A stretch of DNA of 64,000 nt, from the NCBI GenBank assembly GCA_965655095.1, contig OZ296649.1, positions 150,598,001 to 150,662,000 of the forward strand, in the 5' to 3' direction. Of this stretch, positions 2,849 through 51,332 are shown piece by piece. A model generated the notes under the pieces. It had not been told where the DNA came from. It did not search any database and saw nothing but the letters and a program-made list of their open reading frames with translations. The translations under genes were made by a program, and so were the position numbers. Positions within the stretch are counted from its first letter, which is position 1. Every line of letters begins with the position of its first letter. The stretch is from Haplodiscus bocki. Lineage: Eukaryota.

Positions 2849-3942
2849 TCAAATTTTAATCATTTGTAGTGTAAAAGTCAATGTTTCTCCATTAAAATTA
2901 ACTTCTTTGTTATTATCATCTTCTAAATAAAAAGTTATAGTATTCAAAACAGATTTATTTACTTTTTTATAATGAATTGTCTCGGGCTCACAAAATACTT
3001 TGTATCCGGGTTTTTTATCTAATGCAAAACTATATAATATTGTTTGTCTAAAACCATCGACTATACTACCATCGATAATATCACACTTCAAGTGTATTTT
3101 ATTTGTACTACCTAAGTTTACAATTTTTGACTAATATACTTATTATAGTGTTTATAATCCCATCCTGGAGTAAAACCGAGAACAGTACTGAAAAATGATT
3201 TCTCATCAAATCTTATAGCTATAATCATAGCTCTCACTTTTAATTTAGTTTTCATGGTAATGTCATCATATTCAATATCAATTGCTTTGTGATGTCCACC
3301 ATATTCTGGAGGAATAATTTTTAAAAGAGCTTCGGAAATATCTTTAAAAGTGTAAATACCTGGTTCTAATTCATAAGTATTGAAATTTGAATTGTATTCA
3401 TCTAAAACCAGTTTAATATCATCTTCAACCAAATCAATTTGTGTTCTGAGAAAACTTTCGAAATCTTGAAATACAGAACTAGTATAAAATGCTAAAATAT
3501 TCATATATTGCTCATCATTCATTCTTTTTGTTACTTGTTCTTCATATTCTTTAATAATAAGCGGACCTATTATATCATCTTGTAAATCTTCTGCTGTAAT
3601 ATCTTCAATATCTAAATCTTTTTCAATTTCTTTTCTAACTTTTTCATAAGTAACACCACCGGCTTTTTCATCTGGAAATTTATAAAGTTCAAATTTGTTA
3701 TTTTCTTCTGTTATATTAAAAATAGAATTGTATACTTCTAAATCTGTTAAACCTATCATCCAATCTCCTTGAATTTGAATTGGTTGTGAGAAATGAAATG
3801 TTTCTCTTGATTTACTCATTTTGAATTCTAATGTTTCTTCTGCTTTTCTATGAGTTTGTTCGATTAACGTTTCACAATTTTTAGTTATTGATAGTAATAA
3901 ATCTTCTGTTTCATTTTTTGGTCTAATCATTTTCAAATTCAT
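2849..3942 (-). pseudogene. Minor capsid (penton) protein paralogue 1, 1-nt frameshift near 3123
   Basis: N-terminal FHFSQPI...WMIGLTDLEVYNSIFNIT.ENNKF and LEPGIY; C-terminal KIHLKCDIIDGSIVDG..ILYSF..PGYK..ITFYLED..VNFNGE. Adding one A to an A5 run joins the two ORFs. Confidence 0.8.
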
Positions 3943-11834: not shown

Positions 11835-12203
11835 GTGAGTCTTCTCTTACAGTGCAGAGTTGCTGTTTCTAGTCTGATCTTAAAAAAGTTTCGAAATTTT
11901 CCAAATGGTCTCAAAATTGCCGAAGCAGCTAGAAGGGAAACCAACGAAAAGTATTGGAGGCGACAGGCGCATGCTTAATTGAGACATTAATAGGAAAATT
12001 TTTCTCATAGGACAAAAAACTGGAAATTTCGACTCAATTACCAAAGTGGTTTCGGGGTAAAGAAGGATAATAGTGAACATTTGGGAAGCACTGGGATAGG
12101 AGGGAAAGATGTAAAATTTCTTCAACTGCGTCGGAGCTGGAGTTATTTTGCTGGGAATGTTCTTATGAGAGCGGATTATGCTCATATCTTCATTTTGTTG
12201 AAG

Positions 12204-17945: not shown

Positions 17946-17959
17946 GAAGTGTTTTTTTT

Positions 17960-19175
17960 TCAGACGAGCGGAGCGAAGCCTATTCGCACAAGGACACTCC
18001 AAAACCATTTCGTTTTTTTTTCTTGTTCGTGACATCCCTCTGCGTTTCATCGCTTTTAAGTCCAATTTTCTCGGCACCTATTGGTCGGATTTATCCAATT
18101 TTTGTATAAACACTACGACAGGTTCGCGGTCTATCATAATCAAATTTTTCGACTACCAAAAAATTTTTCGGCGAGTTTTTCAACGAAAAAAATCTTTTCG
18201 GTTTTTTTTAGGGCAACAGTTTTATTTTTCAGTCCTGTCCCTACAGGAAGCTTGGAAATGCTGGTGTCTTTGCACAAATCGATCGAACACCATTCAGTTG
18301 AGCGGCATCTTGTAATATTTTGTTCCAATTTTTTTGGCCAGTTTCGGTCGAAAAAAAGGCTGACATATTTGAATGTTCCTTATTCCCCATTGCCCTCTGC
18401 TTTTCTTATTTTTGACGCTATTTTTCTACAAACGCATTCGTAGAATACAATATAAATCGTTCGTTGCATTCGGTTTTTAGCTGAAAATTTTGTGGGAAAA
18501 AATGAATTTTAAATTAAATTTCTGTATCATCTAAAGCTTAGCGCGTTCAGCATGCCTCAAAGTGATGCATATTAATTGAATTGAGAAACAGATTAGGCAA
18601 TGTATAAAGCAGTGGGTTTGGATTCAAGATTCAACTCCGAGCGGACTTTTCTCGTGGGTTTATCGCCAAAGAAAGTCAAAAAAGTATTTTCCCTTAAGAC
18701 TTGTCGCCTCTTGCATCCAGGAAAATTGCCCTGAGGGTGTGTCTCCTAGTACTCCTCAGCATCTCCTCATTGGTCATGTGACCATCGGGTTGTGTGAGAA
18801 ATCTTTTAGTCGAGTTTTCTGGAAACTTGTCGAGAAAAAACGGCTTCATGGGAAGATTTTTTGTTCCCAGATTAGTATTTCTTTACTTAACACGTTAGTT
18901 GTCACCTTTTGAAATCTTGCTGCTCTGAGACGGCATTTGCTAAACAGTGGCTGGCTTTCGCTGACTTTTGAGATGATAAATTTTTCTTTTTCAGCTAAAT
19001 TTTGAAGTTAGGATAGTTACCTTGAACCTCCCCTGTTATCTGTATTGGTTGTTCTCTGCCTAATCTCTCCGGATTTTGGTACATGCTCTCTGGCATTGCA
19101 TATGCATGTGGTCAGTGATGTAATCGAGAGGTTGAGTACCTTCGCGAGCCTTACGCTGAGCACCTTAGCGCCTCT
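17960..19175 (+). repeat. Interspersed repeat family copy (GCGAGCGGAGCGAAGCC head; possibly Helitron/Helentron-related)
   Basis: Collinear similarity with 23175-24850, 24853-25650 and 29660-30100. Confidence 0.7.
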
Positions 19176-20199: not shown

Positions 20200-22250
20200 A
20201 AAGCGTCAATACAGAAATTGATACAAGAATTCAAAGCTGTAGTTTTCGAGAAGGATGAATTGGAATTTCGAGATATGTCTGAACTAAAAGTACTTTTCTC
20301 ACTTCTAGCCCAACAGGATTCCGATGTAGAGATCATTTTTGAAGATATTTAGAAACTAACACTCCACTTCAGTTATAAAGCTATTGAGAGTGAAACCCTG
20401 ATTGAAAAAAAACTGAAATAAATAGAGTTGAATAAGTATAAGTTTGAATACCGAGGTGTGTCAAGACTAAAAGCACTTTCTGGCAACTCTGGTCCATCAA
20501 GATTCCACAGAAGGGTACAAATTCAGCGATTTCCCAATCAAATATTCTAACTCAAAGAGGAAGCTTTAGATTGAGGCTTTGAAGGAAGAAATCAAGTTAG
20601 TAGGTATGGGAAAACCCCGATTAGAATATCGATAAGACTCCATTTTGAAAAATACTTCTTCACGGTTTTGGATTATCAGAAGTCAACCGCATAGAACCGA
20701 TAGTATAGTTTTTGCCACTAATGTTCCACAAAAGCGGAAACTTTTCGAATGCGATCTTGGCGGAAGCAGAGAGATAGTTGCGGACAAAGAAGACTTTGAA
20801 TGCCGAGGTTAATCTAAAGTAAAAGCATATTTGGGATTTTTTGGACTATCAAGATTCTGATGCGAGGAAAATCATTGATTTGATTCGTCAATCGATCTCC
20901 ACAAGTTTCAAGCTTGCAGGAGAGACTAAGATGAGAGATAGCAAGCCTTTAAGTTACGGAGAATTAGGAGTTTCAATATCGAGATGAAACATAAACAGCA
21001 CTATTTGGAATATCGAACTGTCAGTATTCCTATGTAAGGAAGAACATCGACAATATCCATCGAGAATGTGTTTACGACTAAAAGGCGTTTGATTTTGAGA
21101 CCTTGATAGAAGAATTGAAGCCTGTAGATATGGATGACAAATGAGGATAAGTTTGAATATCGAGAAAAATTATTGTGGTTTTCTTTGGAAAATTCGGACT
21201 ATCAGGATTCTGATGCTACGAACAAAATCAACGCTTTTTCCAGCTCAATTTTCCTCTACAAGTGTTGTGTTTTAGATTGAGTTCCTGATTAAGGAGTTCG
21301 AACTTGTAGTGGCTGAGGAATGCAAGTTTGAATATTGAGCGAAATGAATAAAAGTAGCACTTTTTGGAATTTTCGGACTGTCAAGAGTCTGATGCAAGCA
21401 AAATAAATTAACAGTTCTCCCATCTGAAATTTTTCGGCAAACGTTTCGATGCTGACCCTGATGGAAGAGAATAATCCTGTACTTTTGGTGAAACATGTGT
21501 TTGATTATCGAGAAAAATTCAAAGGTTTTTTTTGGAATTTTCGGATCATCAGGATTTTTATGCAAGGGGGAGAAAAACAATGGTTTTTTAATTGAAAAGT
21601 CGTCCAGAAGTCCTTTGTTTTCCATTGAGATCTTGATGGAGGAAATCGAACTTCTAGTGGCCGAGAATTAAAAGTTTGAATATCGATCGATATGAATGTA
21701 AGTACCACTTTTGGTATATCTGGGCTGTCACAAATTCGTTACTTGAATCGTCTGATGCAAATGAAAAGTTTTCGGTGGACAACTTGGTTGGAGAAATCAT
21801 ACCTGTAGTTACTGAGAAATATGAGTTTGATTATCGAGACAAATGAGTAAAATCAAACATTTTTTGATATTTTTACTATCGGGATTATGATGGGAGAATC
21901 AGAAACATTAGTTTTCAATCGAATCAACCTCCAAAATTGTCAGGCTTTCGATTGGGATTGGGATGGAAGAATTCAAGCTTATAGTTGTTGAGAAATTGTT
22001 CAAATATCGATAGAAATCGGTTTTAATAGCACTTTGTTTATTTTTATGACTATCAGGATTCTGATGCACGGAACAAAATTGATATGAATTTTGTTCCGTG
22101 CATCAGAATCCTGATAGTTTTCAACAAAACAGTTCACCACGAATGGAAAACATCCGACTGAGACCCAGATTAGAGATTTAAACCTATATTTTTGAAGAAA
22201 AGTGAGTTTGGAAATCAAAGAAATTCAGTAATAACCTGGCTTTTTGGCAT
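20200..22250 (+). repeat. Degenerate ~170-180-bp tandem array, about 11-12 units
   Basis: Core GGACTATCAGGATTCTGATGC-like motif recurs near 20308, 20491, 20670, 20843, 21014, 21196, 21376, 21543, 21722, 21875 and 22048, each preceded by GAGTTTGAATATCGAG-like and GAAGAATTCAAGCCTGTAG-like motifs. Confidence 0.8.
22049..22118. repeat. Perfect 32-bp inverted repeat with 6-nt loop
   Basis: ACTATCAGGATTCTGATGCACGGAACAAAATT-GATATG-AATTTTGTTCCGTGCATCAGAATCCTGATAGT. Confidence 0.95.
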
Positions 22251-23174: not shown

Positions 23175-24850
23175 TTAGGCGAGCGGAGCGAAGCCCATTC
23201 GCAGAAAGAGACACGTCAAAATGATTTCGTTGTTTGTCCCGTCCGTGACATCCCTCTGCGTTTCATCTTTTTAAATGTAATTTTCTCGGTACCTATTGGT
23301 CGGATTCATTCGAATTTGTGTAAACACTACGACCGGTTCACGATCAACCATATTCCAATTTTTCGGCCGCCAAAAAAATTTTTCATGGAGAGTTGGCGAA
23401 AAAATCAGTTTTCGGGTTTCTTACAGGACAAAAGTTTCAATTTTAGGATTATTTAGAGGGCAAAGGTTATATTTTTGAGTCCTGTCTACAGGAAGCTAGG
23501 AAATGCTAATATTTTCGCATTATTCGGTGGAGCAGCATTCACTTGAGCGGCTTGCTGTAATATTTTTGCAAAATTTTTTCTGCCAGTTTTGATCAGAAAA
23601 AGCTGAAATTTTTGAATTTTTCCGAAAGATTCGACATACCTCATTGCCCACTGCATTTTTTAACTTTAACGATCTTTTTCTACAAGCGCATTTATGGGAT
23701 CCGTTTGCTTATTGCTTAGCTGGACTGGCAACTGGCAACGTCGTAATTGACGGGGTCGATGTTTTTGCTGGAGGAAACTTTCTGGCCCGCGAGTTTTTGG
23801 CGAAAATAATTGAAAACCCAAAAATTTTCAGAGGGCAAGTGTTGTTTTGTCGGATTTCTCTGCCCTAATATCCCATGTATGGCATCCCAATACTGGTTAG
23901 GCGACAGAATATGAAGCGTTAGTTGCATTCAGTTTTTGAGAGAGCTTTTTTTGATTTTTCCACAAGGTTTGACCTGAATATTTCTCAAAAAAAAAACGTT
24001 TTCAAATAATTTTCTGAAATATATAAGTTTAGCGCGCTCAGCCTGCCTGAAAGTGATGCATGTGACTTGAATTGAGGAACAGATTGAGCAATTTTTACGC
24101 CAGTGGCTTTTAATGCAAGTTTTGACTCCGACAAACTTTTCTCATGGATTTTTTGGTGAAAATTGTCGAAAAATAGATTTCAATAAAACTTTTCGACTCT
24201 TCCAAAACTTCTTATACGGTTGTACGAACTCCAAAAGTGAACCGGGCTTAATGACGCCCTCTGGATTGCCTAGAGAAGCAGTCGAGAGCTCTTCAGCGTA
24301 CGCTCGGTTGTAGATAGGTGTTCTGTACTCTTTAGATGGAAAGTAGTTTTTCAATTGTTTTTGCCCTTTGCGATAATTTACTACGGTTCTCATCACCAGG
24401 AAAATTCCCCTGAGGGTGTGTCTCCTAGTACTCCTCAACATCTCCTCATTGGTCATGTGACCATCGGGTTGTGTGAGAAATCTTTTAGTCGAGTTTTCTG
24501 GAAACTTGTCGAGAAAAAACGGCTTCATGGGAAGATTTTTTGTTCCCAGATTAGTATTTCTTTACTTAACACGTTAGTTGTCACCTTTTGAAATCTTGCT
24601 GCTCTGAGACGGCATTTGCTAAACAGTGGCTGGCTTTCGCTGACTTTTGAGATGATAAATTTTTCTTTTTCTGCTAACTTTTGAAGTTAAGATAGTTCCC
24701 TTGAACCTCCGCTGTTTTTTATCTTGGTGTTCTCTGCCTAATTTCAGGATTTTGGTACGTGCCCTCTGGCAATGCATAAGCATGTGGCCAGTGTTGTAAT
24801 CAAGAGGTTGATTGCTGTGGCGATGCTTGCGCTGAGCACCTTAGCGCCTA
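23175..24850 (+). repeat. Interspersed repeat family copy (longest copy)
   Basis: Starts TTTAGGCGAGCGGAGCGAAGCCCATT; collinear with 17960-19175. Confidence 0.72.
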
Positions 24851-24852
24851 TG

Positions 24853-25650
24853 TTTAGGCTAGCGGTGCGAAGCCTATTGGCAGAAGGACATGTCAAAATG
24901 ATTCCGTTTTTTTTTCGCGTGCGTGACATCCATCTGTGTTTCAACTCTTCAATTCTATTTTTTTCGGCAACTATTGGTCGGATTCATCCGCTTTTTGTAT
25001 GAACACTACGACGGGTTCTCGATCTATCATATTCGAAACTTTCGGCGGCCGAAAATTTTTTTTCGGCGAGTAATTAGCACTAGAAATTTCAATTTTCGGT
25101 TTTTTTTTTTACAGGGCAAACGGTATATTTTTGAGTCCTCTTTGTAAAGGAAGCTTGGAAATGCTGTTATTTTTGCAGTAATCGATTGAACACCATTCAG
25201 TCTAGCGGCGTGCTGTGATGGCTGTTGTCACAATTTTTTCCCGGCCAGTTTTCGTCGAAAAAGCTGATATTTTTTTTGAATTTTTTCGAGACAGATTCGA
25301 CATTCCGCATTGCCCGCTGCGTTTCTTAACTTTGACGCTCATTTTCTACAACACTTTTGCAGGATCCGTTTGCTCATTGCTTAGCTCTATTGGCAACGTC
25401 GTGATTGACCGAGGCCGATATTTTCGTTGATCAAAATTTTTTCGCCGATTAGTTTTTGGCGAAAACAATTGAAAACCCAGTTTTTTTAGTGGGCAAGTGT
25501 TACTTTGTTGCACTTCTTTGGACTAGTATCCCATCTATGGCATGCCAATGCTGGTTAGGCGATGGAATATAAAGCATAATTTTTATTTAGTTTTTAGCCG
25601 AAAGTTTTGTTTTTTCCACAGGATTTTGCCCGAAAATTTTCTAAAAAGGA
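24853..25650 (+). repeat. Interspersed repeat family copy, tandem to the previous one
   Basis: Starts TTTAGGCTAGCGGTGCGAAGCCTATT; collinear with ~23175-24000. Confidence 0.72.
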
Positions 25651-29659: not shown

Positions 29660-30100
29660 TGAAGGCGAGCGGAGCGAAACCTTTTGTCAGCCTCCAACAC
29701 GTCGAAAATAGTATAGCTTTTCTGTCCCGTTACATCCCTCCGCATTTCATTTCTTTAAAACTAGATATCTCAACTCATATCGGTCAGATACTTGTAATTT
29801 TTGAAAAGTAATACAACAATGGGTTGACTGTGTATGATGTCCCAAATTTCCGGCCGTCGTATATTTTTTCGGCGAGTTTGCAACAAAAAACATCAATTTC
29901 CGGATTTTTTTAGGGCTCCACGGTTGTTTTTTCAAGTCCTGTCCGTACAGTAAGCTTGGGCTCTTACAGTAATGCTGATGTTTTGGCAGTAATGGATGGT
30001 AGAGACTCCGTAGAAGGGCGTCCTGCGATGAGTTTGGTCAATTTTTTCCGGCCAGTTTTTCCCAAGAAAGATCGAAAAATAATGCATTCTTTGAAATTTT
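29660..30100 (+). repeat. Divergent copy of the same repeat family
   Basis: AAGGCGAGCGGAGCGAAACC...ACACGTCGAAAAT...ACATCCCTCCGCATTTCAT...TTTTTTCGGCGAGTTT. Confidence 0.6.
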
Positions 30101-36100: not shown

Positions 36101-36527
36101 TGCGCGAATTAGCTTGACTGGTTCTTCGAAATCTGAAAATTTTTCACTTGCGTCGTACTAAAATTTTTCTCTCGAAGGCTACATGTTGGATTGGGTCATC
36201 CCTTGCTCAATAGAGAGTGCGCAGTACGGAGAGTGTTCGAAAGTAACGGGACTTCACCGTTCCTACTTATTTTCTTTTCGAAATATCTTGTCTTGTTGTT
36301 TGGAGTTTCTTTAAAAAGAACCTGGTTTTGAACTTAATGGTGAAACTTAATAGCTATGGATGTTCTTTTTGCGGACTTCGGTAGACTTTAATTGTACGGA
36401 TTGCTTTTGATATGACTCGGTCTTTTTGTTTTTTTTTCTTTCGTACGAGACCTCGTCCAAATTAAGGAATTTCATGCAACATTTTGAAAAATTGAAAACG
36501 CAGCAAAGCCGCATGGGCGTACCGGAC

Positions 36528-37055
36528 TGCCATGATATTCATCATGACTTATCAAGAAGTCGAAATCATGCCCACCCAGAAGAGAAATGGACCAATTACA
36601 ACAACCAGCCAATGAGGAGCCAGCACGTGACTGATGCATGTGTTGAACCAACAAACAACAGAGAAAACTAAAAAAAAAGTCGCAAGAGAGAACACCCTCA
36701 TTACCAGCTCTCGTCACTANNNNNNNNNNNNNNNNNNNNNNNNNNNNNNNNNNNNNNNNNNNNNNNNNNNNNNNNNNNNNNNNNNNNNNNNNNNNNNNNN
36801 NNNNNNNNNNNNNNNNNNNNNNNNNNNNNNNNNNNNNNNNNNNNNNNNNNNNNNNNNNNNNNNNNNNNNNNNNNNNNNNNNNNNNNNNNNNNNNNNNNNN
36901 NNNCCTTGTAATAAAATCTTGATCACCCCTTTGAAAATTCCTTGAGATAACTTTGGAGAGATCCCTTCAGAAATCTCTTCGCTGAGATTTTGTTAAACCC
37001 CTCTCTTAAGCATCCACCTAAATACAAGAAATTTTTTCTTGGACCTCCCGTCACA
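36528..37055 (+). repeat. 5' LTR (contains N run 36720-36903)
   Basis: TGCCATGATATTCATCATGA...CCTCCCGTCACA, collinear with 49296-50027. Confidence 0.9.
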
Positions 37056-37199
37056 TTTTTTGGTGACACGAGTTTTTCTCGTTGCTCATCTCAATCTCTG
37101 ATAATCTTTTTTTTTCAGAAACAAAACTTATTCAATAATTCTGCCAAAAAAATTGTATCAGAAACTAACTTCACGAAATGGCCTTCATTCAACCTCTTG

Positions 37200-38200
37200 T
37201 TAATCTTAAACCCTTCAAGGGAAGAGACAAAAGAACTGTAAACGATCTTAATTGTCAATTGACAAGCTGCATTCATAATGATGCAATTAATTATGTTGAT
37301 GGACATCCATAACTTCATCTCCATTTGAAAGGAGGTGCTCTTTCTTCGGCCCAATTCCCGAATTGACAAGGAATGACTTCGTTTTAGCTCTCGCTGCACT
37401 CAGAGAAAGATACTTCATTAACCGACGACTACAGCTCCAGAAAATACTTCTCAGCGCCCGAAAAATGAAGCCATCAGAAGAAAACGGCCGACTTTTTGAT
37501 AGATGTACAAAGATTTGCATCGCCACTGCGGGACCCCCAGCAGTTGCGGTAAAAGATCGTGCACTTGAACGCAATCGCCGAGTGAGCGCAACTTTCATCA
37601 ATGGAATGTCAGTAAAGTTTAAAGGTTTGTTGTTTACCCAACCCTATGATACAAGCATAGAAGACCTGTGTAATGAAGCTGGCAGTCGCATGATTGTTGA
37701 CAAACTATACCCATAAGATGCTTACACCGTATTCAATGACGTTAGTTCGTTTTCCAGTAAGGATCTCTTCACCGGAATCCAAGCTCACTCTCAAGCTCAG
37801 GATAATCTAAAACAAGAAACAAACAAGTCGTCGGGAAGATCTCAAAGATCTAAACGCTTGATGAGATGCTCAAGGTACTCAGTAGAATCAGCCAAGTGGC
37901 CAATATAAACAGCAGAACAAGCAGAAACATAACCAGAGTAATCGTGACTTCAATCAACGTGGACCAACCATCCGTCAACAGCTACCGAACTATAATCAGA
38001 ATTGGCGTCATGGCATCAACCAGAATAACAACTTTCGGAAAACGAATAATAAGCAACTCGTTTCAATAGCCAAAATCAGTATGGCGCACAGTCAAGCAGA
38101 AAGTTTTGCAACATCTGCATTAGGTTTAATCATTTTCCCTCGCAATGTTGGTTCCGCACCTACAACAGAGGGCCCCCAATGTTGACTTATTCGAACTATG
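37200..38200 (+). pseudogene. gag (degraded)
   Basis: CCHC zinc knuckle CNICIRFNHFPSQC at 38107-38148, preceded by N/Q-rich and helical fragments. Start approximate. Confidence 0.75.
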
Positions 38201-38439: not shown

Positions 38440-41400
38440 CTGTACCTATTCCGGTTCGTTTTTAAGTTAAAGCCCTTGTGCGTACAGTAGCATTTTCTAT
38501 TGCTATGCCTCTTTCCCTTTTTCGAAAGCTCCAACATATCAATTCTCAATCTATTGCCCAATATAACCCAGCTATAAACACAGTAAAAGTTGCAAGAGGT
38601 GCTACTGTAAGTACCCTCAGATCTTTCAGTGGTTCATTGAAAATAGCAAACGAGATTTTTTCTGAAACATTTTTTTGCTCAAAACCATGAATCAAACTTT
38701 TTTATGTTTGCCTTTTTTCGAAAAGATTGTTATTTCCATTGACTCGAGAACCAGAACTTTAAAATTACCTAGACTTACTTTGCAGTTGATTGAAGTGAAG
38801 GTCTTCATAAAAATGGTAAAGTTAGAGACTCACAGGTAAGAAAAACATTTTTCTTCGAACGACTGAATCGATTGATGTGAATCTTAACAGCACCGAATTT
38901 GTTACTTGCTCTTTAGTAAACGGTTCATATCCCGAAGATACAGGTGGTTTTATTGAACCAGATTCGAAATTTGAACGCCAAACAGGACATTGCATCACTA
39001 GCGCAACCGTCAGTAGAATCTTCAGAAGACATCTGTCTAGCTATCTCGAATGTACTTCCACATGCAATTGCCGTAGCGAATAACAGGTCTTTTTACCATA
39101 TTACGATACTTACACCGAAACAAGCTCAGTATCTTGAACCAATGAATCCAGAAATGTTTTCGTGTTTTCTCAACCAGAACATTATTGCTGTAATCGAGGA
39201 CTCTGAAGTCAGGGTCTATCCTTCGCCTAACGAACTTCGGTTTCCCACACCCGAAAGTTGTCCTAACCCTGAGTCTTTGACAGGAATCCATCGTCGCATG
39301 TAGGATGAAATCGCGAATATGAAATCTCAAAAAATGTCGACCCTATTTACAAGGAATTGGATCGACGCATCTTCTTGGATCAATTTCCATGGACAACTGT
39401 TTTTGGTGCGAAATGAAAATGTAATGTCGAAGACCTTCAATATTATCTTATTTTTGCGCGTCATCGACTTTATATTGGTAAAAATGAAGAGCTTGCAGTT
39501 GAACTTACTCCTGAAAACAATGACACGACGTTTACTCAAGGCCCACCTACTCCTTTCCATTACCGTGCTGAAGTTTTAGTCGAACTTGCTTTTATACAGT
39601 TTTCGGGACTAATATACACACTAGTGTTTTTCAAAAACTCTGGTCCAATTGTTGGCTTTCATAAACCATCGGGTAAGCTGAGAATTTTAATGGGTCTACG
39701 ACGAATAAATAATCTGATCTGGCACGATTATGATAACCACAGTTTCATAATCGCTACGCTAGCAGATGTCGGTGCACATCTTGCCGGTTAAAAGTATTCT
39801 TGCCAAATTTCACTGTAGTCAAGTGTACAGTGTGTTGTAAATGGCAGACTCTTTGTCTGTACCGCTTATGTCCTTAAGTTTCGTATCACGAACTTTTGCC
39901 TTTTTAGTTATAGCGCAAAGACTAGGTCGCTCTGTTGGTGCCTTTGGTTCTATTATGCGTAAATATCTGTATCCATGTAATAAGGCATCTCAATTTTTTC
40001 AATACGTAGATAATCTTGGCACAGCCGCTACTTCTTTTTGCAAATAATTTTTAAGCAATTTTTGTATGTGTTTCTGAAGCAGGACTCCTTCGAATGTGAA
40101 AATTTTTCGACAGAAATTACATTCCTAGCAAGCACTCTTACTAGTCAAGGTATGTCACCGGACCAGAAAAAAGCCTCCAAGTTTTTGTACGCTCTCAAAG
40201 TGCCTAATCCATATGTTTTTTTTGCAATATTTTGTTGCCTTCATACCTCAACTGGGAGAGAAACTTTTTTGCCTTTCTGTAAATTGCGCCGACAAGAAAA
40301 TGAAGCCGTTCCAAATGGAGGACATCATCAGCGTATTGTTGGCTTACTCCGGGGCTTAGAGCAAGCTTGCAATTTGTCGTTTTGCTTGCCAAATGCCAAT
40401 GCCCTACACGTGATTTTGAGTCAAGCAAGCTGTTATGTTGCCGGCTGTGTTCTTTTGATCGAAGTTTACATTGTTGACCAATCAGGTAACTTGTTTAGGA
40501 CTTATGTCCTTGTTTCTTTTGGCTCTGAAATTTTTCACCATCTCATCTTAAACTTCCCATCTATGCCAAAACCTTTTTTGCTGTGCACGTTGCTTTTGAT
40601 AATTTTGCCCTCATTCTTTGGGGTAGTACTTAACCAGTTTTAGTCCTTACGGATAACCGAAGTTTTAATCATTTCTTTCAAGCTAAGACACTTCCTTTTA
40701 GTTTGTGGACATGTGGGACCGTTTTTGGCTTTTCATTTTGTTCCTGATCATATTCCCGGCTCCTGATCATATTCCTGTCACGCATACACACTCATACTAA
40801 ATTGGGACTTCGCTTCCATTCAAAAATTCCTGTACAAAATGTGCAATTAAATATGGGCATGCAAGTCCTTGACAAATCTCTGAACGTTGTACATTACGGT
40901 TGTACCCCCTTTTCCCTCGCGAACTTTTTTCAGCTTCCTTTCCCGAAATAAATGACATGTTCAAAATCCTTTAGATGAGTGTGAAATTCCCAAGAAACTG
41001 ACTTCTGAATCTCCGGGAAGAACAACAGGAAGATTCTAATATCCGACTTCTTCATAGGATGAATACACAACCACCGCAACCCTCTCCGTATTTCAATTCT
41101 AAACTTGATCGATTAGAAGTTTCACAAGGTGTCTTTTATCGTGAGTTTTTTTACCTTACCGGTAAAAGCATTACTCGACAATATGTCATTCCCAAGCAAG
41201 TTGTGTTCTGAATTTCTTAGACGAATCCCTACTAGTAAATTTGCGGGACACAATCGTATCACATCAACTACCCAAATTTTTGAGGAAAGTTTTGCAAGTC
41301 AAGCCTGTAAAATTCGCCATATTGAAACCCCCTCTTGTCTCTTGCTGTCGATAAGTTTTGTTCAAGCGATATGCTCCAAATTGATTCAGTCTGTGCATTT

Positions 41401-42200
41401 CCGGATCCAGCTGTTTTCACTCATTTCGACTGCTGAAGAGGTTTTCACTAAATATCCTGCAATACCCTACGAAATGCAAGTGCTCTTAGCGTGGCCAAGC
41501 AACTCTTCCAAATTTTCATGCGCACATCGTATGTTCCCAAGATTACTCTTTTAGATATGTGTTCTACGATCACTGGAAAAGTATTGACTGAACTTTCCAA
41601 ATTTTTCGAAATCAACCTTGAATATGCTACTGTTAGACATCTACAAACTGTGGGTGCTCTCAAGCGCACTCATGCGTCTCTCGAACAGTTTCTTTGCATT
41701 CACGGAAACAAATTGAAAATCAAGGTTACCACACATACGTAGACTCTAACCATGCTTCAATAGGGTGTACCCCGACCTATCTGTTTCAGGGTCGTGCACC
41801 TATCAAACCTCTTGCTGTTCGTTTTGAGGAATAAAATTCCAAAACCTTGAAACCCGTTACGCATTTACTAGTTTTTTGCAAAATCGAAGGAATGGAGTAT
41901 TTTCTGCTGCGCGTGATGCCAGTGTCACTGCATCTAATAAATACCGTCATTTATATGATCGCAAAGCAAATGCAGCCCTTTAGAGCGATGCAAGTCCCGT
42001 TTGTTGCTGAACCCGAAATTGTCTAATGCCATATGGGTAAATTCCTCACTGATTTGTTTCCACTTGACCGAGTTGAACAAGTGCTCACCAGTTCTAAGTA
42101 AATAATTCGTAAGGTTGGCCCTAATTACTTACAATGCGTTCATCGCATTCGACTATATCATAATACTCCACAGTATCAACTGGACGATCTTTCCGAAATT
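38440..42200 (+). pseudogene. pol (PR-RT-RNase H-integrase), many stops and frameshifts
   Basis: KALVRTVA (decayed ALVDTGA), KPSGKLRIL..LRRIN, QYVDNL (YVDD), ILSQASCYVAGCVL (DAS), VLTDNR, YATVRHLQTVGALKRTH (integrase). Confidence 0.88.
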
Positions 42201-45200
42201 CATCCACAGAAGGTTATCCGTGATCCCGTATCACGTCATATTTCTGAACCTTCCTTGTTTGATTGGACTTCTTTTGGAGGACAAATCTTTTACCCCATTT
42301 GACGATGTTATCGATGTACCTAGTGTTCTTTACTACACTCCGCGAGGTTCTGTTGCACCAACGCAGCTGCCCAAGTTACCTCCGCTAACCCTTCCTCAGA
42401 CTGCTACTGATCGTGTTCTGCGACCACCTTTCAACCCCCCTCAGCCACGTGTTCCCTCACCGCAACTTCCAATCAATTGGTCTTGTCAGCTTGATGACAT
42501 TGTCTTAAATTGGGACGCAGTACTCATGTGTCTGTGTCATCCTCGGATCCTGAATCGTCTCTCTCGGGAGCTTTTTTTGTCCACCGCAGAGACAACCACC
42601 TTTCACTCCCTGAAATTTTTCCGAATGTTATGCCTCCACCACCACCTTGGCTGTAAACTAGTTCCGACTGGGACCTCTCCAGTTGTCTTTTTCATGTTTT
42701 TCGAGTTTCAATATAAATCGTGCGAACAGGTGCATTAATAGTACAACTGTTCCTACTCCTGTTACCCCTACCCTTCCTACTGTAACCTACATGATTCAAA
42801 ACGTCACCCCTAGTGTACGTTCACCATCCAATGTTCATCCATCTAGATCTCGCATTCAACGACCTTTCACTCCTATCTGTCCTCTGCAGTCCGTATCAAT
42901 CTCGAACCCTTCCGACCCCCTCCTCGGTTGTCTCCTCGTCACCCCCTCCTCCCGCACCCCCTTCGTCCATTCTGGATACACCTTTTACGTATTATTACCC
43001 TAATGCATTTTTTAACCCTTCTAGATCTTCTTTTCGAAAAAATTGGACGCTTTTTCCCATTTTTTTGCTTTTACTACTACGATGTCTTCTCAGACCGTCA
43101 CTCAGGACCCCCGTTTACGCTCTAATTCCTCGAAAACCCCTTTACAATCGTCAACCTTGGAAGTAGACTCGTTTTCTGCAACAAATGCTCAAAATTGCTT
43201 TTTCAACCTCTTTGAATATTTTCTATCCTTTGCAACGTGTTAGCCGTCGAACCTGGCCCTATTGGCTGTCTTGGCTTCCTTGCTCCCTGAGCTTTGGCCT
43301 TTATCTTTTTAAACCCCTTTCCGTTGTATTTACCTTTTTCCGTCTCTTTCAGATGTCCGACTTTACCGATTCTATGGCCTCGTACATCCCGAATATTGTT
43401 CTCTACACCCTGAATAGTCCTCGCCCGACGTCATTTGACCCAATGATGCAATTTTGCTATACAATGACATTTTCGATACTTGTAGAAAGAATGCCGTTCT
43501 ATGGGAGAAAATCTGACTTTTTCCACCTTCTGTCGAGTTATCAAATTTTTTTGCCCCATGAGAACCTGCAAGCCCTCTGACAACCCTCACCACTCGCTTC
43601 TTCTTTGAGTTTTGTTTTGTCGAGTGGTACCGCTTCACCGTATTCTTCTGAGAGTTTTCTGCGCTTTTTCATGTTTTGTCTCCCAAAACGGGCCTAAATT
43701 TTGCGTGTGTTCGTGGAAATCTCGGAAATAACTCACGTTTTTTGCCCCTAACGGGACGTGGAGCAACCTCGTACAGCTCCCTGCTTCTCCTATCCTTCGG
43801 ATGGATCATCTGATTTTCCACGACGCTTCGTAGGTATTATCCTCTGAGATAACGTGTTAGATGCTGAATAACCTTTTTTTTCACTGCAAATTTGGGATTT
43901 TATACTGAAACTTTTGTTGAACTTCATTTATGGATAATCTGGCAGTGACTCACAATGGAATTGGCTATCATGATCTCGACAGCTTTGTTTGCTCTGACGC
44001 AAGATCACCCTGCTTAAACCGTTGCTCTCTTTGTGTTTGTATCGAAACCAGCCAACGCTGTTCCAGTATTGACAGTGTGTGATTGTCTGTTTCTAGCAAC
44101 CACGCCGTCCCTAAAAACTGGAACAGATCCTATTTGCTCGAAATTTTTTTCTCTTTGTTCATTCGTTTTACGGAGTCTTTTTTCTAACCGCTGCTTCATT
44201 GATAGACGCAGTTGCTTTTGCACCTTCATGAGCCATATGATCGCTTGGTGATGTCCCAAATAGTTCTTAGAATCGTTTCTCGAACTCTATATCTTCCACG
44301 ACTTCCATTGCAGGCACCCGTAAAGCTTTGCCTTTCTTCAGCTCTTTGCCACTCTGGCGTTGTATTTAAATACTATAACCTTCTTTGACTTTTGACAAAG
44401 TTTTCTCTTTTTTAACCTGATTTTTTTCCCACGGGTAGATAGTACATGGATGAGAAGAAACATTCTCCTCCGACCTCTGATAATCTCCCCACGGGTTACT
44501 TCTTCTTCGGAATGTCTAGCTTTCGACTACTTTCACCTGTTCTTCCAATTGTTGCTTCTTCCCACTGACAGGTGTACCGAAATTTTGTGCATCCGTTTTT
44601 CCAATGGAACCGCCCGATATATTTCGCTCTGTTTTACCACTCACATCACAAAGCAGATGATTGAACACTTCTTGATGTACATAAAAAAACATGCTGTTTG
44701 GATCTTCGTTTCTTCATTTTACCTCCCTGTTGATTTTCTCTATTTTGTCATAAATATTGCACTAGTTAATCTTCTAGACCGTTATTTCCTCCCAACGCTG
44801 TAGGAAATCCATACCCTGCTGCTGGTAACGTTCCCATTAATTTGTTTCTATCCTTGTAACGCTTTCACTCTTCTCCCATATGCAGTTTAATCAGACAATC
44901 ATCCACTTGTTGAGGTGTAGGAATAGCTCGCACTTCTCGACTTTTTTTACATCAGCCACCCATTCTGAATCTTTGCACTGCGACAAAGCTTTTAGAATTT
45001 TTCTTGTTTGGCAGATGCTTGAAGTATGTGATCATCTACCACTCAACCGTCAAAGTGTTTCTCGATACTTTCTCTTAGGAACTGATCCATCTTTACTATG
45101 AAATGATCCAATTCACTTCGTTGAGATGAGACTACGTGCTATTTTAGATCACCTGCTTTTTTCCTTCTTTAGCTGAAGACCTGTTTGATTGCATTCTCCG

Positions 45201-45619
45201 AAAAGTTTGCCTTTTTTTCGGCCCAATATATGACAAATTCTCCGTATATTACCATCTAAACTAACGATATAGTGTGCAGAATTCTTTACTCTGTACAAAC
45301 TTTTTCGGGTAAAATTAAATTAATTTTTTTTAGTTGAGCCACCAACTTTCCCCTTGTTTCTAACTGTACGCTAGTGTTCTTTTCTAACTAATCGCCAACA
45401 CTTTCAGACTACATATATACAGAATATACAGACTAATTGTAAGACTCTTATGGTCAGACCGCTGGCGACCCAGTTTCGGTTTTCAGTGCCCCCGTCCCAC
45501 TCTTGTTTCGCAGGACACTTTGGGTCTCATTCCGTTTTGAAAGAGACTAGTTGCCCGCTCCTGTTCCTATAAGTGCCCTCAACACTTATTCTATAATTTT
45601 CACTAATTGGCAACTCGTT

Positions 45620-47900
45620 TCTTTTCCTTTTTTTGCTTTCTTCTGTTTCTTTCCACGTCTCTTTTTGTTCTTTTTTTATTAGTCTTCCATATGCTCACTC
45701 TGAAGAACTCGACTTAAAATTATAATACGAAACCTATTGTGTTAATACTGATATTCCCTGTATTTAGATTGTTCAGCGAAAATAATAGGCAAACTGCCTT
45801 CGGTAACAAATCAAAGAATCAATGTTTAGAATATTTCACCTACTCATATCAGGTGACTCCTCTCAGAGAAAGATGTTTCTTTTGTATCTTCAATTCAAAA
45901 CTTTCAAGGTACAGAAATATAACACTTTTACCTCAAGTCATCGGCTATGGTTCGTGCCCGATCTCCGGTCTTACCATTTGGCACCTCGGATGGACCTCTC
46001 GAAAAAGACCATTTTTCACGAAGATGAGAAAATTCTCCTTTGTCAGAAAGTTGTGAATGTACTGTTTCTACTTCCAATCACAATGTGTGATGTTCTCATC
46101 AACAAGATATTCTTCGTTTGACTGAGACTCTGGATAAGCTGTGGATTTTGCCGAGATGCAATTGGTATTTGAACTTTACCAATCTTTCGATGGAGGGATT
46201 CAATGTACATTGGCTTGTTTATGAAATACAGAAAGAGATTGATGCTGCGACATTTGATTTAACTAGGCTCTTTAATGAAACTGCGACCCTTATCCAACCC
46301 TCATCAGGTTTTTCTCACCTCGATCGTGTGAAACGTGGTGCTCCTCTTGCCGTCCGTGCACCGAGCGCTTTTGGATTTTTTGGCACTGGGCTTTCCATGG
46401 GTTCTGGTGACTGCGGCCTCAGTGGTTTTCTTTTCAAATTTCACTCTTAACAATTTTCTGGAGCATTTTCTCGACTTTTTTTATTATGTTCCCTCTTTTG
46501 ATGATAATGTTAATGGCTTCAACAAGGCAACAAATGACCAGTTTTACATAATGATTAAAAAACTAGGCACATTGCATGAAATTGAGACCCAGACGATCGA
46601 AATCCAGACTGCCAACTGGAAAACCATCTCGGACCAAATGGATATCTTCGGAGCATATATCCATACCATGCGTAACTGCGACCAACTTTTGTACTCTCGA
46701 CAACAAATTAACTTCAATTTCGTCACTGTTGCTTCTTTACTTTCTTTGTTTTATGCCAACATTGAATCATACCGCGCTTCTTTTTGCATACCACTTTATC
46801 ATGTTAAACAGTGTGCCTGTGCTTCTGACTAAGTGTGTTCCGGTGTCTTTTCTAAGCCAGTACTTCTTGAAATCGTTTTGAACGAAGTTGATTTCGGAAA
46901 ATCGCGTGCAACCAATCGTTTTACTTTGGCCATTCCCACTCAATATCTACAGTCTTATTACGAAGCCCAACTGTTGCATGATGTTACTCTTCCGTGTGGA
47001 CTTTTATAGACGATGTTTATACCCCTTGCCTCCACACAGACAGTTATGATGACATTCCAGGCCTTTCCTCTCCCAATGCCTCAACTAGACTGCGATGAAG
47101 CCCTACAATGGGAAATTGAAGCAAACTATCTCGCCGTCTCAGTGGATGGTAGGGCAACGGCTTTAGTTACTGAGACTCAGCTGCAAAATTCATGTTATTT
47201 CAGTATTTGCCACGAAGGCTATGCGACCGAGGGTCTTCAATAGTCTTGTCTCTCTATTTAATTTTTGGTAATCTTGTCCAGGCCATAAAAGTCTAATATA
47301 AAAGCTGTTATTTTGCCTATCCAGGAATGAGCAAATAATCTTCGCTTTGGAGTTTGGCTCTCTTCTGCTTTTGCAGATTATTCCCTCATGGAATATTACA
47401 TGGGTTCTTCGGCCACTCTTCTTAGTGAAACCTTCCCATCTTGTCGTATCTGCATAATAACACTTGCCTGTGGAAAACCCTTCGCAGGGCCCAACATCAG
47501 AATTCGCTCAAACCGTCAATCGTGTAATCGTTTGCTAGCCACGAAGCTGCGTGTATACCTACCAGAGCCGCTTGCTTCAGTCCTTATTTCCTTGCCTTCG
47601 TTTGACTATTTACCCTCATACACTACTGAAACTCAAGTGAATAATGTTCTTGCAGTTTCTGATGCAAATTTTATAGTTACAATACAGCAGCTTGCACAAC
47701 CATTAATTATGAAAATGGCCGCAATGGATACTTCATTTAAAGACAAATTTGAATCTTTTGCTAACATTCGAACAATCCTTGTTCTTGGTGTTTTTTTTTA
47801 TTTCTGTGGTGCTTCATATTCTGTTTCCATTCTTATTCTATAGATATGCCACTTTGTACAAAAATTCTTTACGTTCACCTAACACTATATGCACGCAAAA
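45620..47900 (+). pseudogene. env-like class I fusion glycoprotein (degraded)
   Basis: Hydrophobic leader, furin site RVKR followed by Gly-rich hydrophobic peptide GAPLAV..FGFFGTGLSMGSGDCGLSG, heptad-like region, Cys-rich ectodomain and C-terminal hydrophobic segment TILVLGVFF. Confidence 0.75.
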
Positions 47901-48329
47901 CAACCCATATGGTTGCGTTGCTTAATGATTGTCGCTGACAAGGACTTCACAGAAATGTTAGTCTCGGGCCTCGAAACATGGAAGAATTTACTAAACCTAT
48001 TCCTCTGTGTCGTTTGAAACGTTTACATACTACCAATATCAATGCCGATAATTTCGAATTAACCGCCCCACTTTGAATACGTTCCGTATAAAAGTCTATG
48101 CACCCGTTTTGAGATCATGAATGCTACTCTTATATCTGACTTTTGTTAGTTTAATGCTACGTTTTAAAGTTAAGTGTACTTTTGACCTCAGAGGAGATGT
48201 TTTCTTTTTCCTTATCTTTTCCTAAATGAAACACACTGCTAAAATAGACAAAATTCTCTATAGAAGCATTTGCGCGTTAGTCCTGTCACTTTGCTACGAA
48301 CTGACCGCTTTAGTTCACTCACTTTCGTT

Positions 48330-48844
48330 ATGCTTGCTTTTTGCTATCCAAATTCCTTTTAGCGCTTCGATTGCCCCATCTGCCTGAATCGCTCTCATGT
48401 GCTCTATAGTTTGACCGTACCTTCTGGCCCAGTACCTCATGTCGTGTTTACCAGTTGCTTTTACCACCTCTGGACTAATGATCTCTCCGATTGCCCTACT
48501 TGTCGCCACCCCATTGAAGCGTTAGGATTATACTACTATTGTGACTTCCCTTGCTTCATTATCGCAGAAGGCACTCCCAACTGGACTCTTTGGGACGTTC
48601 TGAAAACTGCTCGCCTACTCTTGACGAATCATTTTGTCTCATTTGTTTCTCCAAACTTTTTCATACATCCAGCATGTCATTTCTGTGGTAAATCAGAATC
48701 CTAGTTTGTCATATACCACTTTCTTTCTTTGTGCCGATAAATTTTTTGGACAAATACTCAAGACCCTCCTTTTGTGTTTGAATTTCTTGCTGCGTTCCGG
48801 TCATATGTTGTTTACGTGGACCCACATCTTGCTCTTCAGATTTG
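48330..48844 (+). pseudogene. RING-finger accessory ORF inside the LTR element
   Basis: FDCPICLNRSHVLYSLTVPSGPVPHVVFTSCFYHLWTNDLSDCPTCRHPI is a C3HC4 RING with two Cys codons decayed (TCT, TTT). In-frame stops at 48360 and 48702. Confidence 0.65.
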
Positions 48845-49295
48845 AGTTGTTTATTTAGCTTTATATCCGTTTGAAATAAACAAATGCTTAAGTCAACTTT
48901 ATAGTTTATTCGATATGAACTAGAAATGTTCGGTTTCCTTTACAAATACTCAATGATCATAAGTTAAAAAGTAAACAAATCTCAGTCTTCGTTTCCTGTA
49001 TTGCTCTTAGTGATATTTACTAAGAACATGTTGACTATCAACAGCGTTTTTGATTCCTATTTCGAGTTTGTTTGCCCCTTTTCATTTTTCATGCTTATAT
49101 AACCCACTAACCTTTCTTTCTTTGTTAATAATCGAGACCTGTTCCTCCCTTCGTTTTTCCTTTTCCTTCTTTTCCTGGGTATTTTGTGTGCCCTATTCTA
49201 AAATTAACCAGTTCTTTCGTTTTTCACGCTCTTGTTTCTGTCCCCGCTTAGACTTCTTTTTCGCTCTGGACTTCCCGTCTTTCCTCCGTGAGGAG

Positions 49296-50027
49296 TGTGA
49301 TGGTATTTATCATGATATATGAAGAATTCGAAGTCATGCCCCCCTAGTACAGATGTGGACCAATTAGAGCAACCAGCCAATGAGAAGCCAGCGCGTCAAT
49401 GACGCATGTGTTTGTCACAAACACAAGAAGAAAACTGACACAACCCTCCAACAAGCAACAGAAGAGACCCAAGAAAGCCTGAAGAAAGAACACCCTCCTC
49501 ACCAGCTCTCGTCACTAGATGTTNNNNNNNNNNNNNNNNNNNNNNNNNNNNNNNNNNNNNNNNNNNNNNNNNNNNNNNNNNNNNNNNNNNNNNNNNNNNN
49601 NNNNNNNNNNNNNNNNNNNNNNNNNNNNNNNNNNNNNNNNNNNNNNNNNNNNNNNNNNNNNNNNNNNNNNNNNNNNNNNNNNNNNNNNNNNNNNNNNNNN
49701 NNNNNNNNNNNNNNNNNNNNNNNNNNNNNNNNNNNNNNNNNNNNNNNNNNNNNNNNNNNNNNNNNNNNNNNNNNNNNNNNNNNNNNNNNNNNNNNNNNNN
49801 NNNNNNNNNNNNNNNNNNNNNNNNNNNNNNNNNNNNNNNNNNNNNNNNNNNNNNNNNNNNNNNNNNNNNNNNNAACTTGTAATAAAAGCTTGATCACCCC
49901 GCTACAATATTCCTTGAGATAACTCAGAAGAAATCCCTTCTGAAATCTTTTAGCTGAAATTTTGTTAAATCCTTCTTTAAAGTATCCACCTAAATAAAAT
50001 GAATTTTCCGCTCGACCTCCCGTCACA
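49296..50027 (+). repeat. 3' LTR (contains N run 49524-49873)
   Basis: TGTGATGGTATTTATCATGA...CCTCCCGTCACA. Confidence 0.9.
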
Positions 50028-51332
50028 TGACAAGGAGGCCCATCATTGTAGCAGTGCTAGGGTGAAAATCAAAAACTTAACTTTTTATCCAATTTTTCTA
50101 GTTCCCCAGTCAATATTCTGTGTTTCTTGCGACATTTCGATAGAATGATCGTTTTTTCCAAGAACGCAGCCAAGCTGAGTAGGAGTGCAGAAGCGACCAT
50201 GCCCATCGTAAAAGCGGTGAGAGCGCTCAAGTTTTAGAAAGAAGCAAAGTACTAACCGCTTTGAACGGCTAACTTGTCTTTCTCTTCACATTTTCCAAAC
50301 GTTTTCGTTATTGACCAGCTGGCGAGGCCGTTTGCTGATTTTCACCGGGATGGTACATCCTTCTTTTTTATTTTCATTCTTTTGTGTACACTTTCTCCCG
50401 CGTGTTCCAAGCTGGAGCAAGCGTCACTCTTTGCTCTTTGATTTCAAGCACTTGTGGCTATCGGAGTTCAGATTAAGTTAATCAAGTATTTAGACTCAAA
50501 TTTTCTCAAATTTGTCATTGTAATTCGCATCTTGTTTTCTGCTTTCTCGCAAGGATGACCACTCACACCCACCGCGTCTTGAGTTTGTTAATTGCTAAAG
50601 CGTATGAAAATTGCATAACATTCAAAGCGTCAAAAATGACCTGTAGATCATTGTAGGCTCCGAAATTTTCGATGCTGTGTTCAGTGTGCAGTTTGTCGAC
50701 GTGATTGGGAAATTTTTGATGCGTTGATAAATATGCAGTTTTTCAATGCGTTGGGAATTCCCGCTAAAGTTCCATTCTAAGTTCTTTCTTTTCTAAATTT
50801 TTAGCGCTTCATGCGTGGCTACCTTGGTGCCTATGTTTTTGAAATTGTTTTTCTTGAAGACTAGTTGTTGGATCGCGGTCATAATTTGATCATTCTGCGA
50901 AATAGACAAGTCACGTTTTGGTACGTTTCATACTTTCGCTCCAAGACCCAAGACTTCTGGTTGGATTATGACCACCCAGTACTCATTCAAAAGCCCGCAA
51001 TATGAGAATCTGTGAAATACCAGGCTTTTTAGGGAGGAGGCATGACCCATTTCATACATTTACTACTTTTCAAATGACTTGTTTTGATGTTTTGTAATTC
51101 GAGTTTTTTCAGCCTGCGTCTTTCAATTTTGTGACTTTCCACTGACTCATTTGAATGCTGATAACTTAAATTGCTTTTGAACAGTTCTAATGTTTTTTTG
51201 TGAAATTTGGTAGAAACGAGAATTTCACATTCAAGTGATCAATTCGTCGATACCGTTTCTCGCCTTCGTTGCAAGTGTATGCGAAACCCAGCTTCACCTC
51301 TGTTTATTGAAATATAAAATTGCTTGCTGCAG

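Follow-up and report, generated by a model that had tools for sequence, protein, structure and literature searches.

A decayed RING-like reading frame behind env in copies of a probable Gypsy element of Haplodiscus bocki

Ty3/gypsy elements bearing an F-type env gene, the 'ancient errantiviruses', are widespread in metazoans and are described as having three ORFs (Chary & Hayashi, eLife 2026, PMC13524379). Extra genes specific to a family, placed downstream of pol and ahead of the 3' LTR or at other sites, have been described for rotifer elements (ORF3 types, PMC5408684), plant elements (aORFs, PMC7264820) and the Cer1 CERV (PMC10309623), and extra genes of rotifer, plant and nematode elements are also treated in PMC12786077 and PMC3485330. 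The nearest precedent in idea for ubiquitin-related domains in Gypsy elements is Burro/GYPSM1, giant planarian elements for which Arkhipova & Yushenova (PMC6431247) describe an F-like env region together with MATH/TRAF, BIR and Ubi/SUMO-like domains and an AIR1 motif labelled RING Zn-finger, and propose an interference of Burro with host ubiquitination and apoptosis systems.

The locus studied here lies in a window of 64,000 nucleotides from Haplodiscus bocki (GenBank assembly GCA_965655095.1, contig OZ296649.1), by which we mean the whole stretch of DNA that was analysed. The frame of interest belongs to a decayed LTR element of about 13.5 kb with the following features, numbered from the first nucleotide of the window.

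36524 to 37056, plus strand: 5' LTR, direct repeat with 49292 to 50028, N gap at 36720 to 36903, ends approximate
38107 to 38148, plus strand: gag-type zinc knuckle C-x2-C-x4-H-x4-C, read in translation, within a broken gag region
39417 to 42330, plus strand: decayed pol with RT-like, RNase H and integrase-like stretches in this order, many stops and frameshifts
42331 to 45928, no strand assigned: pyrimidine-rich region of 3.6 kb that separates pol from env, the 'central accessory region'
45929 to 47954, plus strand: env of paramyxovirus/pneumovirus F type, frameshift near 46430 to 46476, several stops
48330 to 48845, plus strand: decayed 171-codon accessory frame interrupted by stops at codons 11, 125 and 137
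48372 to 48539, plus strand: RING-like domain with Cys15, Cys18, His37, Cys43, Trp48, Cys55, Pro56, Cys58, Arg59 and an MDM2-like tail (R-H-P-I...L-Y-Y-Y)
48540 to 48704, plus strand: C-terminal half of the frame, outside known families, with Cys71, Cys75, His113 and CHFC at 116 to 119, without Pfam match
49292 to 50028, plus strand: 3' LTR, direct repeat, N gap at 49524 to 49873, ends approximate

Like the ancient errantiviruses of PMC13524379, the element has LTRs, gag, pol and then a paramyxovirus-F-like env, and it differs from them by an extra frame 3' of env and by the 3.6 kb that separate pol from env; neither RING nor accessory nor ubiquitin occurs as a word in the main text of that paper, and RING and accessory are also absent from its 7 supplements. 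Burro is 30 kb long (PMC6431247) and has its domains within a giant ORF1 or upstream, whereas the element of 13.5 kb described here has a small separate RING frame behind env. The extra genes of the rotifer, plant and Cer1 elements are given as GDSL, DEDDy, TM, antisense or Rev-like proteins, unlike the RING found here; RING does not occur as a word in the available text of PMC5408684 and PMC7264820 and means ring-shaped in that of PMC10309623. An initial annotation of the window, made from the letters alone, had called the architecture complex-retrovirus-like and unusual for Metaviridae; the word unusual is overstated, as env-bearing Gypsy elements are widespread (PMC13524379) and extra ORFs, including ubiquitin-related ones, have been described (PMC6431247, PMC5408684). 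A stand-alone RING gene behind env was not found in the literature searched, outside which lie Repbase, GyDB and subscription journals.

The RING-like feature is real, present at the level of the element family, non-canonical, and dead in every copy seen. Our preferred reading, to which we assign a probability of roughly 0.5, is that a once-selected fourth gene has left its dead remains in this stretch, and that this gene would have encoded a non-canonical, probably dimeric RING protein using the host ubiquitin system, in an env-bearing Gypsy sub-lineage.

The LTR direct repeats are 82.1% identical over 346 aligned columns outside the N gaps (K2P 0.21), and the insertion is therefore old. An N gap occupies the same internal position in both LTRs, which leaves about a third to half of each LTR out of this comparison. 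A scan of the element ends gave no clear target-site duplication, and the gag region gave no Pfam match. Within pol, RNase H is the sole domain with a tool match (Pfam RT_RNaseH at 40508-40690, E 4.4e-5, narrowly missing the cut-off); no match to RT or integrase was obtained in the Pfam or PDB search, and the stretches that we take to be RT-like and integrase-like were assigned by eye from their motifs. The pol region may resemble Gypsy proteins of acoel worms, which is a lead only. The Gypsy identity of the element is only likely because RT and integrase were placed by eye and RNase H alone was matched. With its two LTRs and an env related to viral fusogens 3' of pol, the element has two of the features by which an env-bearing Ty3/gypsy element is recognized, a third being the pol order PR-RT-RH-IN with an RT that groups within Ty3/gypsy. 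The region at 42331-45928 contains ATG frames of 70-131 aa, including plus-strand frames at 43185-43580 (131 aa) and 44450-44803 (117 aa), and a Pfam search with all six frames of 43000-46000 gave no match below E 0.06.

The position that had been claimed for the frame, between env and the 3' LTR, was confirmed, and env is a real F-type gene. An intact env relative of 743 aa (P0004) maps to 45929-47954 at 44-48% identity, and its structure model (pLDDT 66) matches the F proteins of RSV, NDV and Nipah, with a best E of 2.7e-6 and 56 matches at E<=0.001. The ESM search of env reached 0.96 to Fusion_gly, but with a low recognition of 1577. By reading through env at 46428-47840, 35 protein relatives were obtained at 32-57% identity, many of 690-760 aa and all unnamed. 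A RING domain fused to env was found in 0 of the 35, and the comparison of the env C-terminal piece with longer proteins gave 0 of 1251. One further env relative at 48%, the metagenome locus L001, has about 640 nt past its env stop, and these contain neither the RING pattern nor a tblastn match, so the RING gene looks restricted to a sub-lineage. Downstream of env in L001, at 3363-3395, there is a short frame with a single C-P-x-x-x-C string. The env relatives P0004-P0038 are themselves diverse full-length F-type proteins without Pfam match, and several of their clusters at 90% comprise 17-38 members, which suggests that young relatives exist in multiple copies.

The accessory frame begins 375 nt 3' of env and ends approximately 450 nt before the 3' LTR. 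It had been presented as an ORF, which does not hold for this copy: translation gives stops at codons 11 (48360), 125 (48702) and 137 (48738), none of them mentioned at the time, and the longest stop-free piece (48363-48701) is 113 aa. Direct reading of the frame reproduced the motif spacing given in the initial annotation, with CPIC at 48372-48383 (Cys15, Cys18), then x13, Ser32, x4, His37, x2, Phe40, x2, Cys43, x11 and CPTC (Cys55, Cys58; to 48503); Arg59 stands directly after CPTC, the tail ends in three Tyr, and the further CHFC string occupies 48675-48686, codons 116-119. If stop codon 125 is read as X, the stretch 48675-48734 gives C-x2-C-x10-H-x4-C in the same frame, a possible second zinc finger, for which a Pfam match is absent and which the matches of the other copies to the frame, ending at 48669, do not reach. 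Strings resembling a branch point and AG were seen by eye at 48137-48150 and 48301-48313, 5' of the ATG at 48330 with which the frame begins, and an AATAAA lies at 48875, 30 nt past the last stop of the frame; both may be due to chance in this AT-rich DNA, and a strict splice-acceptor pattern had no match in 47900-48400.

A RING ancestry of the decayed frame is likely because the evidence from Pfam, PDB and ESM is concordant though each part of it is weak, and the claim of a RING-type domain is borne out to this extent. The 113-aa piece matched the Pfam families zf-RING_2 (E 0.033) and zf-C3HC4_3 (E 0.046). With a trimmed domain of 63 aa, 6 of the 8 families listed were RING families (E 0.0034-0.076, 13-18 bits), all of them under their cut-offs, which lie near 27; the best RING score was 17.9 bits against a gathering cut-off of 27.3. 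RING proteins made up 30 of the 31 matches at E<1 in the PDB sequence search (RNF4, MDM2, RNF126, Pirh2, HRD1, MAT1, AMFR and NOT4), the best E of 0.0018 belonging to a tandem RNF4 construct and single-domain matches starting at E 0.09. In the ESM feature search (recognition 2403) the ten best family-bearing matches all fell into one clan; the best matches overall (0.93) were unnamed viral proteins of 110-117 aa, followed by RING-labelled viral clusters at 0.89-0.90. A single-sequence structure model of the RING piece was uninformative (pLDDT 44), with no fold match at E<=0.001.

The closest characterized proteins are the dimeric RING E3s RNF4 and MDM2 (PDB 2xeu, 4ap4, 2hdp, 2vje; Pfam zf-C3HC4_3 / zf-RING_2), with which the frame shares a CPIC...H...C...CPTCR core, the helix Trp and the linchpin Arg. 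RING E3s contact E2~ubiquitin through residues equivalent to Ile17, the helix Trp, Pro56 and Arg59. In the alignment with RNF4, Ile17, Trp48, Pro56 and Arg59 of the frame fall on residues of the E2 face or on the linchpin Arg, so that the E2-binding hydrophobics and the linchpin Arg of RING E3s are both present in the window; Arg59 is lost in a second copy of the element (copy 2, see below). The tail of the RING-like domain aligns with the C-terminal strand of MDM2 (RQPIQMIVLTYF). The frame differs from RNF4 and MDM2 in having 6 of the 8 ligand positions filled, in its scores below the cut-offs and in an unrelated C-terminal half.

We regard it as very improbable that the pattern arose by chance, or that a conserved cis-acting RNA or DNA element merely translates into a Cys-rich string. 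The profile scores, all under curated cut-offs, and the uninformative single-sequence model speak in favour of this explanation, as does a relaxed six-ligand pattern that matches once more in the window, outside the element, at 12149. Of 300 first-order Markov shuffles of the internal region (12.2 kb), 1 contained this relaxed pattern and 0 a stricter one, both patterns having been defined post hoc with the motif already known. These counts, the agreement of Pfam, PDB and ESM on RING, and the lean of differences between copies towards third codon positions of the RING frame (6 of 12) argue against both forms of this explanation.

The canonical RING-HC (C3HC4) pattern, C-x2-C-x(9-39)-C-x(1-3)-H-x(2-3)-C-x2-C-x(4-48)-C-x2-C, is matched incompletely: in the window 6 of 8 ligands are filled, no Cys or His stands at ligand positions 3 and 5, and the x4 between Ser32 and His37 falls outside the canonical x(1-3), so that the register of ligand 3 is ambiguous, codon 32 not being where the canonical spacing would place it. 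The MDM2-type C2H2C4 arrangement, in which the His ligands 3 and 4 are four residues apart and followed by x3-C-x2-C, is likewise absent; a Gly and a His align with MDM2 ligands, but ligand 3 is non-His in both the window and copy 2, and the alignment needs a gap. The likeness detected by sequence points to the RING superfamily but to neither of these classes. As had been stated, the codons at the two positions are TCT (codon 32, Ser) and TTT (codon 40, Phe). Their being one change from TGT had been taken as a sign of two Cys decayed in this copy, but 29% of all triplets in the element are equally close to a Cys codon, and the other copies lack Cys at these positions as well.

Other copies were read from sequencing-run contigs aligned to 47400-49400 (2 kb) at an 80% likeness filter. 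The stretch was found in four runs belonging to one study, and the nearly identical contigs among them may come from the very DNA that was sequenced for the window. Two of them, copies 2 and 3, are present in all three runs of sample S1. Copy 2 has an env match at 47423-47456, the RING frame at 48449-48583 after 1033 nt (992 nt in the window) and then the LTR edge at 49229, while copy 3 has the end of env at 47792-47839 and the C-terminal half of the frame at 48619-48654 after 708 nt (779 nt in the window). Run X4 contributed further short contigs at 48425-48483 and 48598-48669. The RING-like domain is thereby overlapped by the pieces 48425-48483 and 48449-48583, and the C-terminal half by those at 48598-48669 and 48619-48654. 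Because env and the frame are colinear in copies 2 and 3, the frame is a trait of the family, and its insertion into a single copy is ruled out; other copies do carry the frame, at the same place.

Two protein matches were returned by phmmer among 1.84 billion representatives. P0002 was rejected as a relative, being a low-complexity repeat (11 stretches). P0003 (116 aa) was rejected as an independent relative: it reproduces the differences listed for copy 2 and is therefore copy 2 in a shifted frame. Its first half was called in the +1 frame and its second half in the RING frame, the latter having 52% identity over 46 aa to the C-terminal half of the frame; from the shifted half, the last two bases of every RING codon can be deduced, with 28 of 61 residues identical and no gap. 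Read in this way, copy 2 lacks the stop at codon 11 and could encode Cys18, His37, Cys43, Trp48, Cys55 and Cys58, whereas Cys15 and Arg59 have been lost from it. It excludes Cys and His at codons 32 and 40, where the residues of the window are possible. Upstream of its match, the X4 contig starting at 48425 stays in register (by hand, 21 of 30 loose letters agree), and it differs from copy 2; its codon 32 begins, again by hand, with a pair that excludes Cys and His. The ligand is thus absent at codon 32 in 3 of 3 readable copies and at codon 40 in 2 of 2, so that in all copies read each of the cross-brace zinc sites is short of one ligand. Since the other copies also lack Cys at these codons, the losses are not private decay of the window copy. 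The view of a C3HC4 finger with two Cys decayed only here is thereby not supported, copy 2 excluding Cys at both codons and the X4 contig at codon 32, and the outcome that the initial annotation itself had named as refuting, a consensus that does not restore the Cys ligands, has nearly come about.

This shared loss of one ligand per zinc site, with the dimer tail and the hydrophobic E2 face kept, would also suit an accessory protein that was functional and no ligase, namely a decoy or adaptor of RING fold whose zinc sites had weakened and which dimerised with a host RING E3 or bound E2 without catalysis. MDMX dimerises with MDM2. The family-wide presence of the frame and the hint of constraint described below fit such a protein as well. 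We nevertheless consider it quite unlikely, as the linchpin Arg59 and Trp48 are present in the window copy, like in active RINGs; it is established that RINGs with variant ligands can be active, and a partner for such a decoy is not known.

The distribution of the pieces of other copies along the locus follows the frame. Pieces at >=80% (at least 80% likeness) cover 62% of 48330-48704 and 15% of the env tail; the coverage is 0% for the spacer before the frame, 0% for codons 126-171 and 6% for the spacer that follows. Four of the five post-env pieces lie in the frame (chance 0.014), and 2 of 3 do if copies 2 and 3 only are counted (chance 0.15). Which pieces pass the 80% filter is noisy, because the copies and the LTRs are all about 18-20% diverged. 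Between the window and copy 2, codons 51-61 show 12 differences, 6 synonymous and 6 non-synonymous; pN/pS is 0.30-0.38 depending on the transition weight (p 0.04-0.08), a value from 11 codons of a piece that had been selected by its similarity. Of the six frames, the RING frame shows the lowest pN/pS; the other five range from 0.38 to 4.5, and the low value among them belongs to the antisense frame with the same third positions. A coding constraint on the RING frame is suggested by these comparisons, as a hint.

The same data have to be weighed against a passenger origin, in which a RING fragment from the host or a DNA virus was captured in the 3' untranslated region, was already dead in the common ancestor with two ligands lost, and was then copied without function. 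Such a history would account for the lack of ligands 3 and 5 in every copy read, for the absence of an intact version from all libraries searched and of the frame from L001, and for the marginal selection signal, given also the noisy passage through the 80% filter at 18-20% divergence. We hold it to be unlikely, since the stops and gaps are private to single copies (the codon 11 stop in the window, 5 nt of gaps in copy 2), the similarity clusters within the frame and is lacking in both spacers, the RING frame is the lowest of six in pN/pS, and a donor gene was not found. No intact copy of the RING frame occurs among the copies seen, all of which are dead.

On the preferred reading of a once-selected fourth gene, the product would have been a protein of about 125-170 aa with an N-terminal RING fold, non-canonical zinc ligands and a C-terminal half, presumably expressed from a spliced or internally started RNA. 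Judged from the biochemistry of RING E3s, the RING would dimerise through its MDM2/RNF4-like tail and bind host E2~ubiquitin via Ile17, Trp48, Pro56 and Arg59, and ubiquitin might be transferred to a protein of the host or the element that is bound by the C-terminal half. By analogy with these enzymes a ligase activity of the ancestral protein is likely, while a role against silencing or immunity, as put forward at first, is a guess. A more specific scenario, in which an F-type enveloped Gypsy sub-lineage carried a stand-alone RING ligase with reduced ligands, taken from a DNA virus or from the host, and used it to degrade a host restriction or silencing factor, is tentative and in our judgement leans towards the unlikely side. 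As to origin, the ESM Atlas matches point to small RING proteins from Nucleocytoviricota and Preplasmiviricota, the unnamed viral proteins reaching 0.93 and the RING-labelled clusters 0.89-0.90, a likeness of features only, without alignment or E-value, and a lead on origin only; the RING piece gave no sequence match in viral contigs.

Retroviruses usually recruit host ubiquitin ligases, e.g. via Vif or Vpx, and large DNA viruses encode RING ligases of their own. If the preferred reading is true, a Gypsy virus with env and its own RING gene would represent a strategy of DNA viruses inside a retroelement, which would encode the ligase itself rather than hijack one like Vif or Vpx, and this would indicate that an invertebrate lineage defends itself against such elements at the protein level. 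What limits the value of the finding is that every copy seen is dead, that the set of ligands is incomplete and that Gypsy elements commonly carry extra genes; it mainly shows where to look, namely behind env in the 35 relatives, many of which are full length.

Searches for the frame elsewhere were negative within their range. Among the 1.84 billion protein representatives there was no relative in another host, and a word-indexed protein search with the 171-codon frame gave 4 candidates, none of which scored. Viral contig scans with env, the env alignment, and the RING and RT pieces yielded no match, nor did prokaryote genome scans or the PHROGs search. A metagenome scan reduced 138 pattern matches to 2 loci with RING in neither.

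A tRNA gene search found none. Upstream of the element, a dispersed repeat family of three to four copies (17959-18316, 23177-23561, 24853-25219 and 29663-29759) and a 300-nt pair (18717-19016 and 24396-24695, 98% identical, 5.7 kb apart) represent further mobile elements. The window also contains, at 22038-22129, a hairpin-forming inverted repeat of 92 nt with 46-nt arms that are 87% complementary and directly adjoin each other without a spacer.
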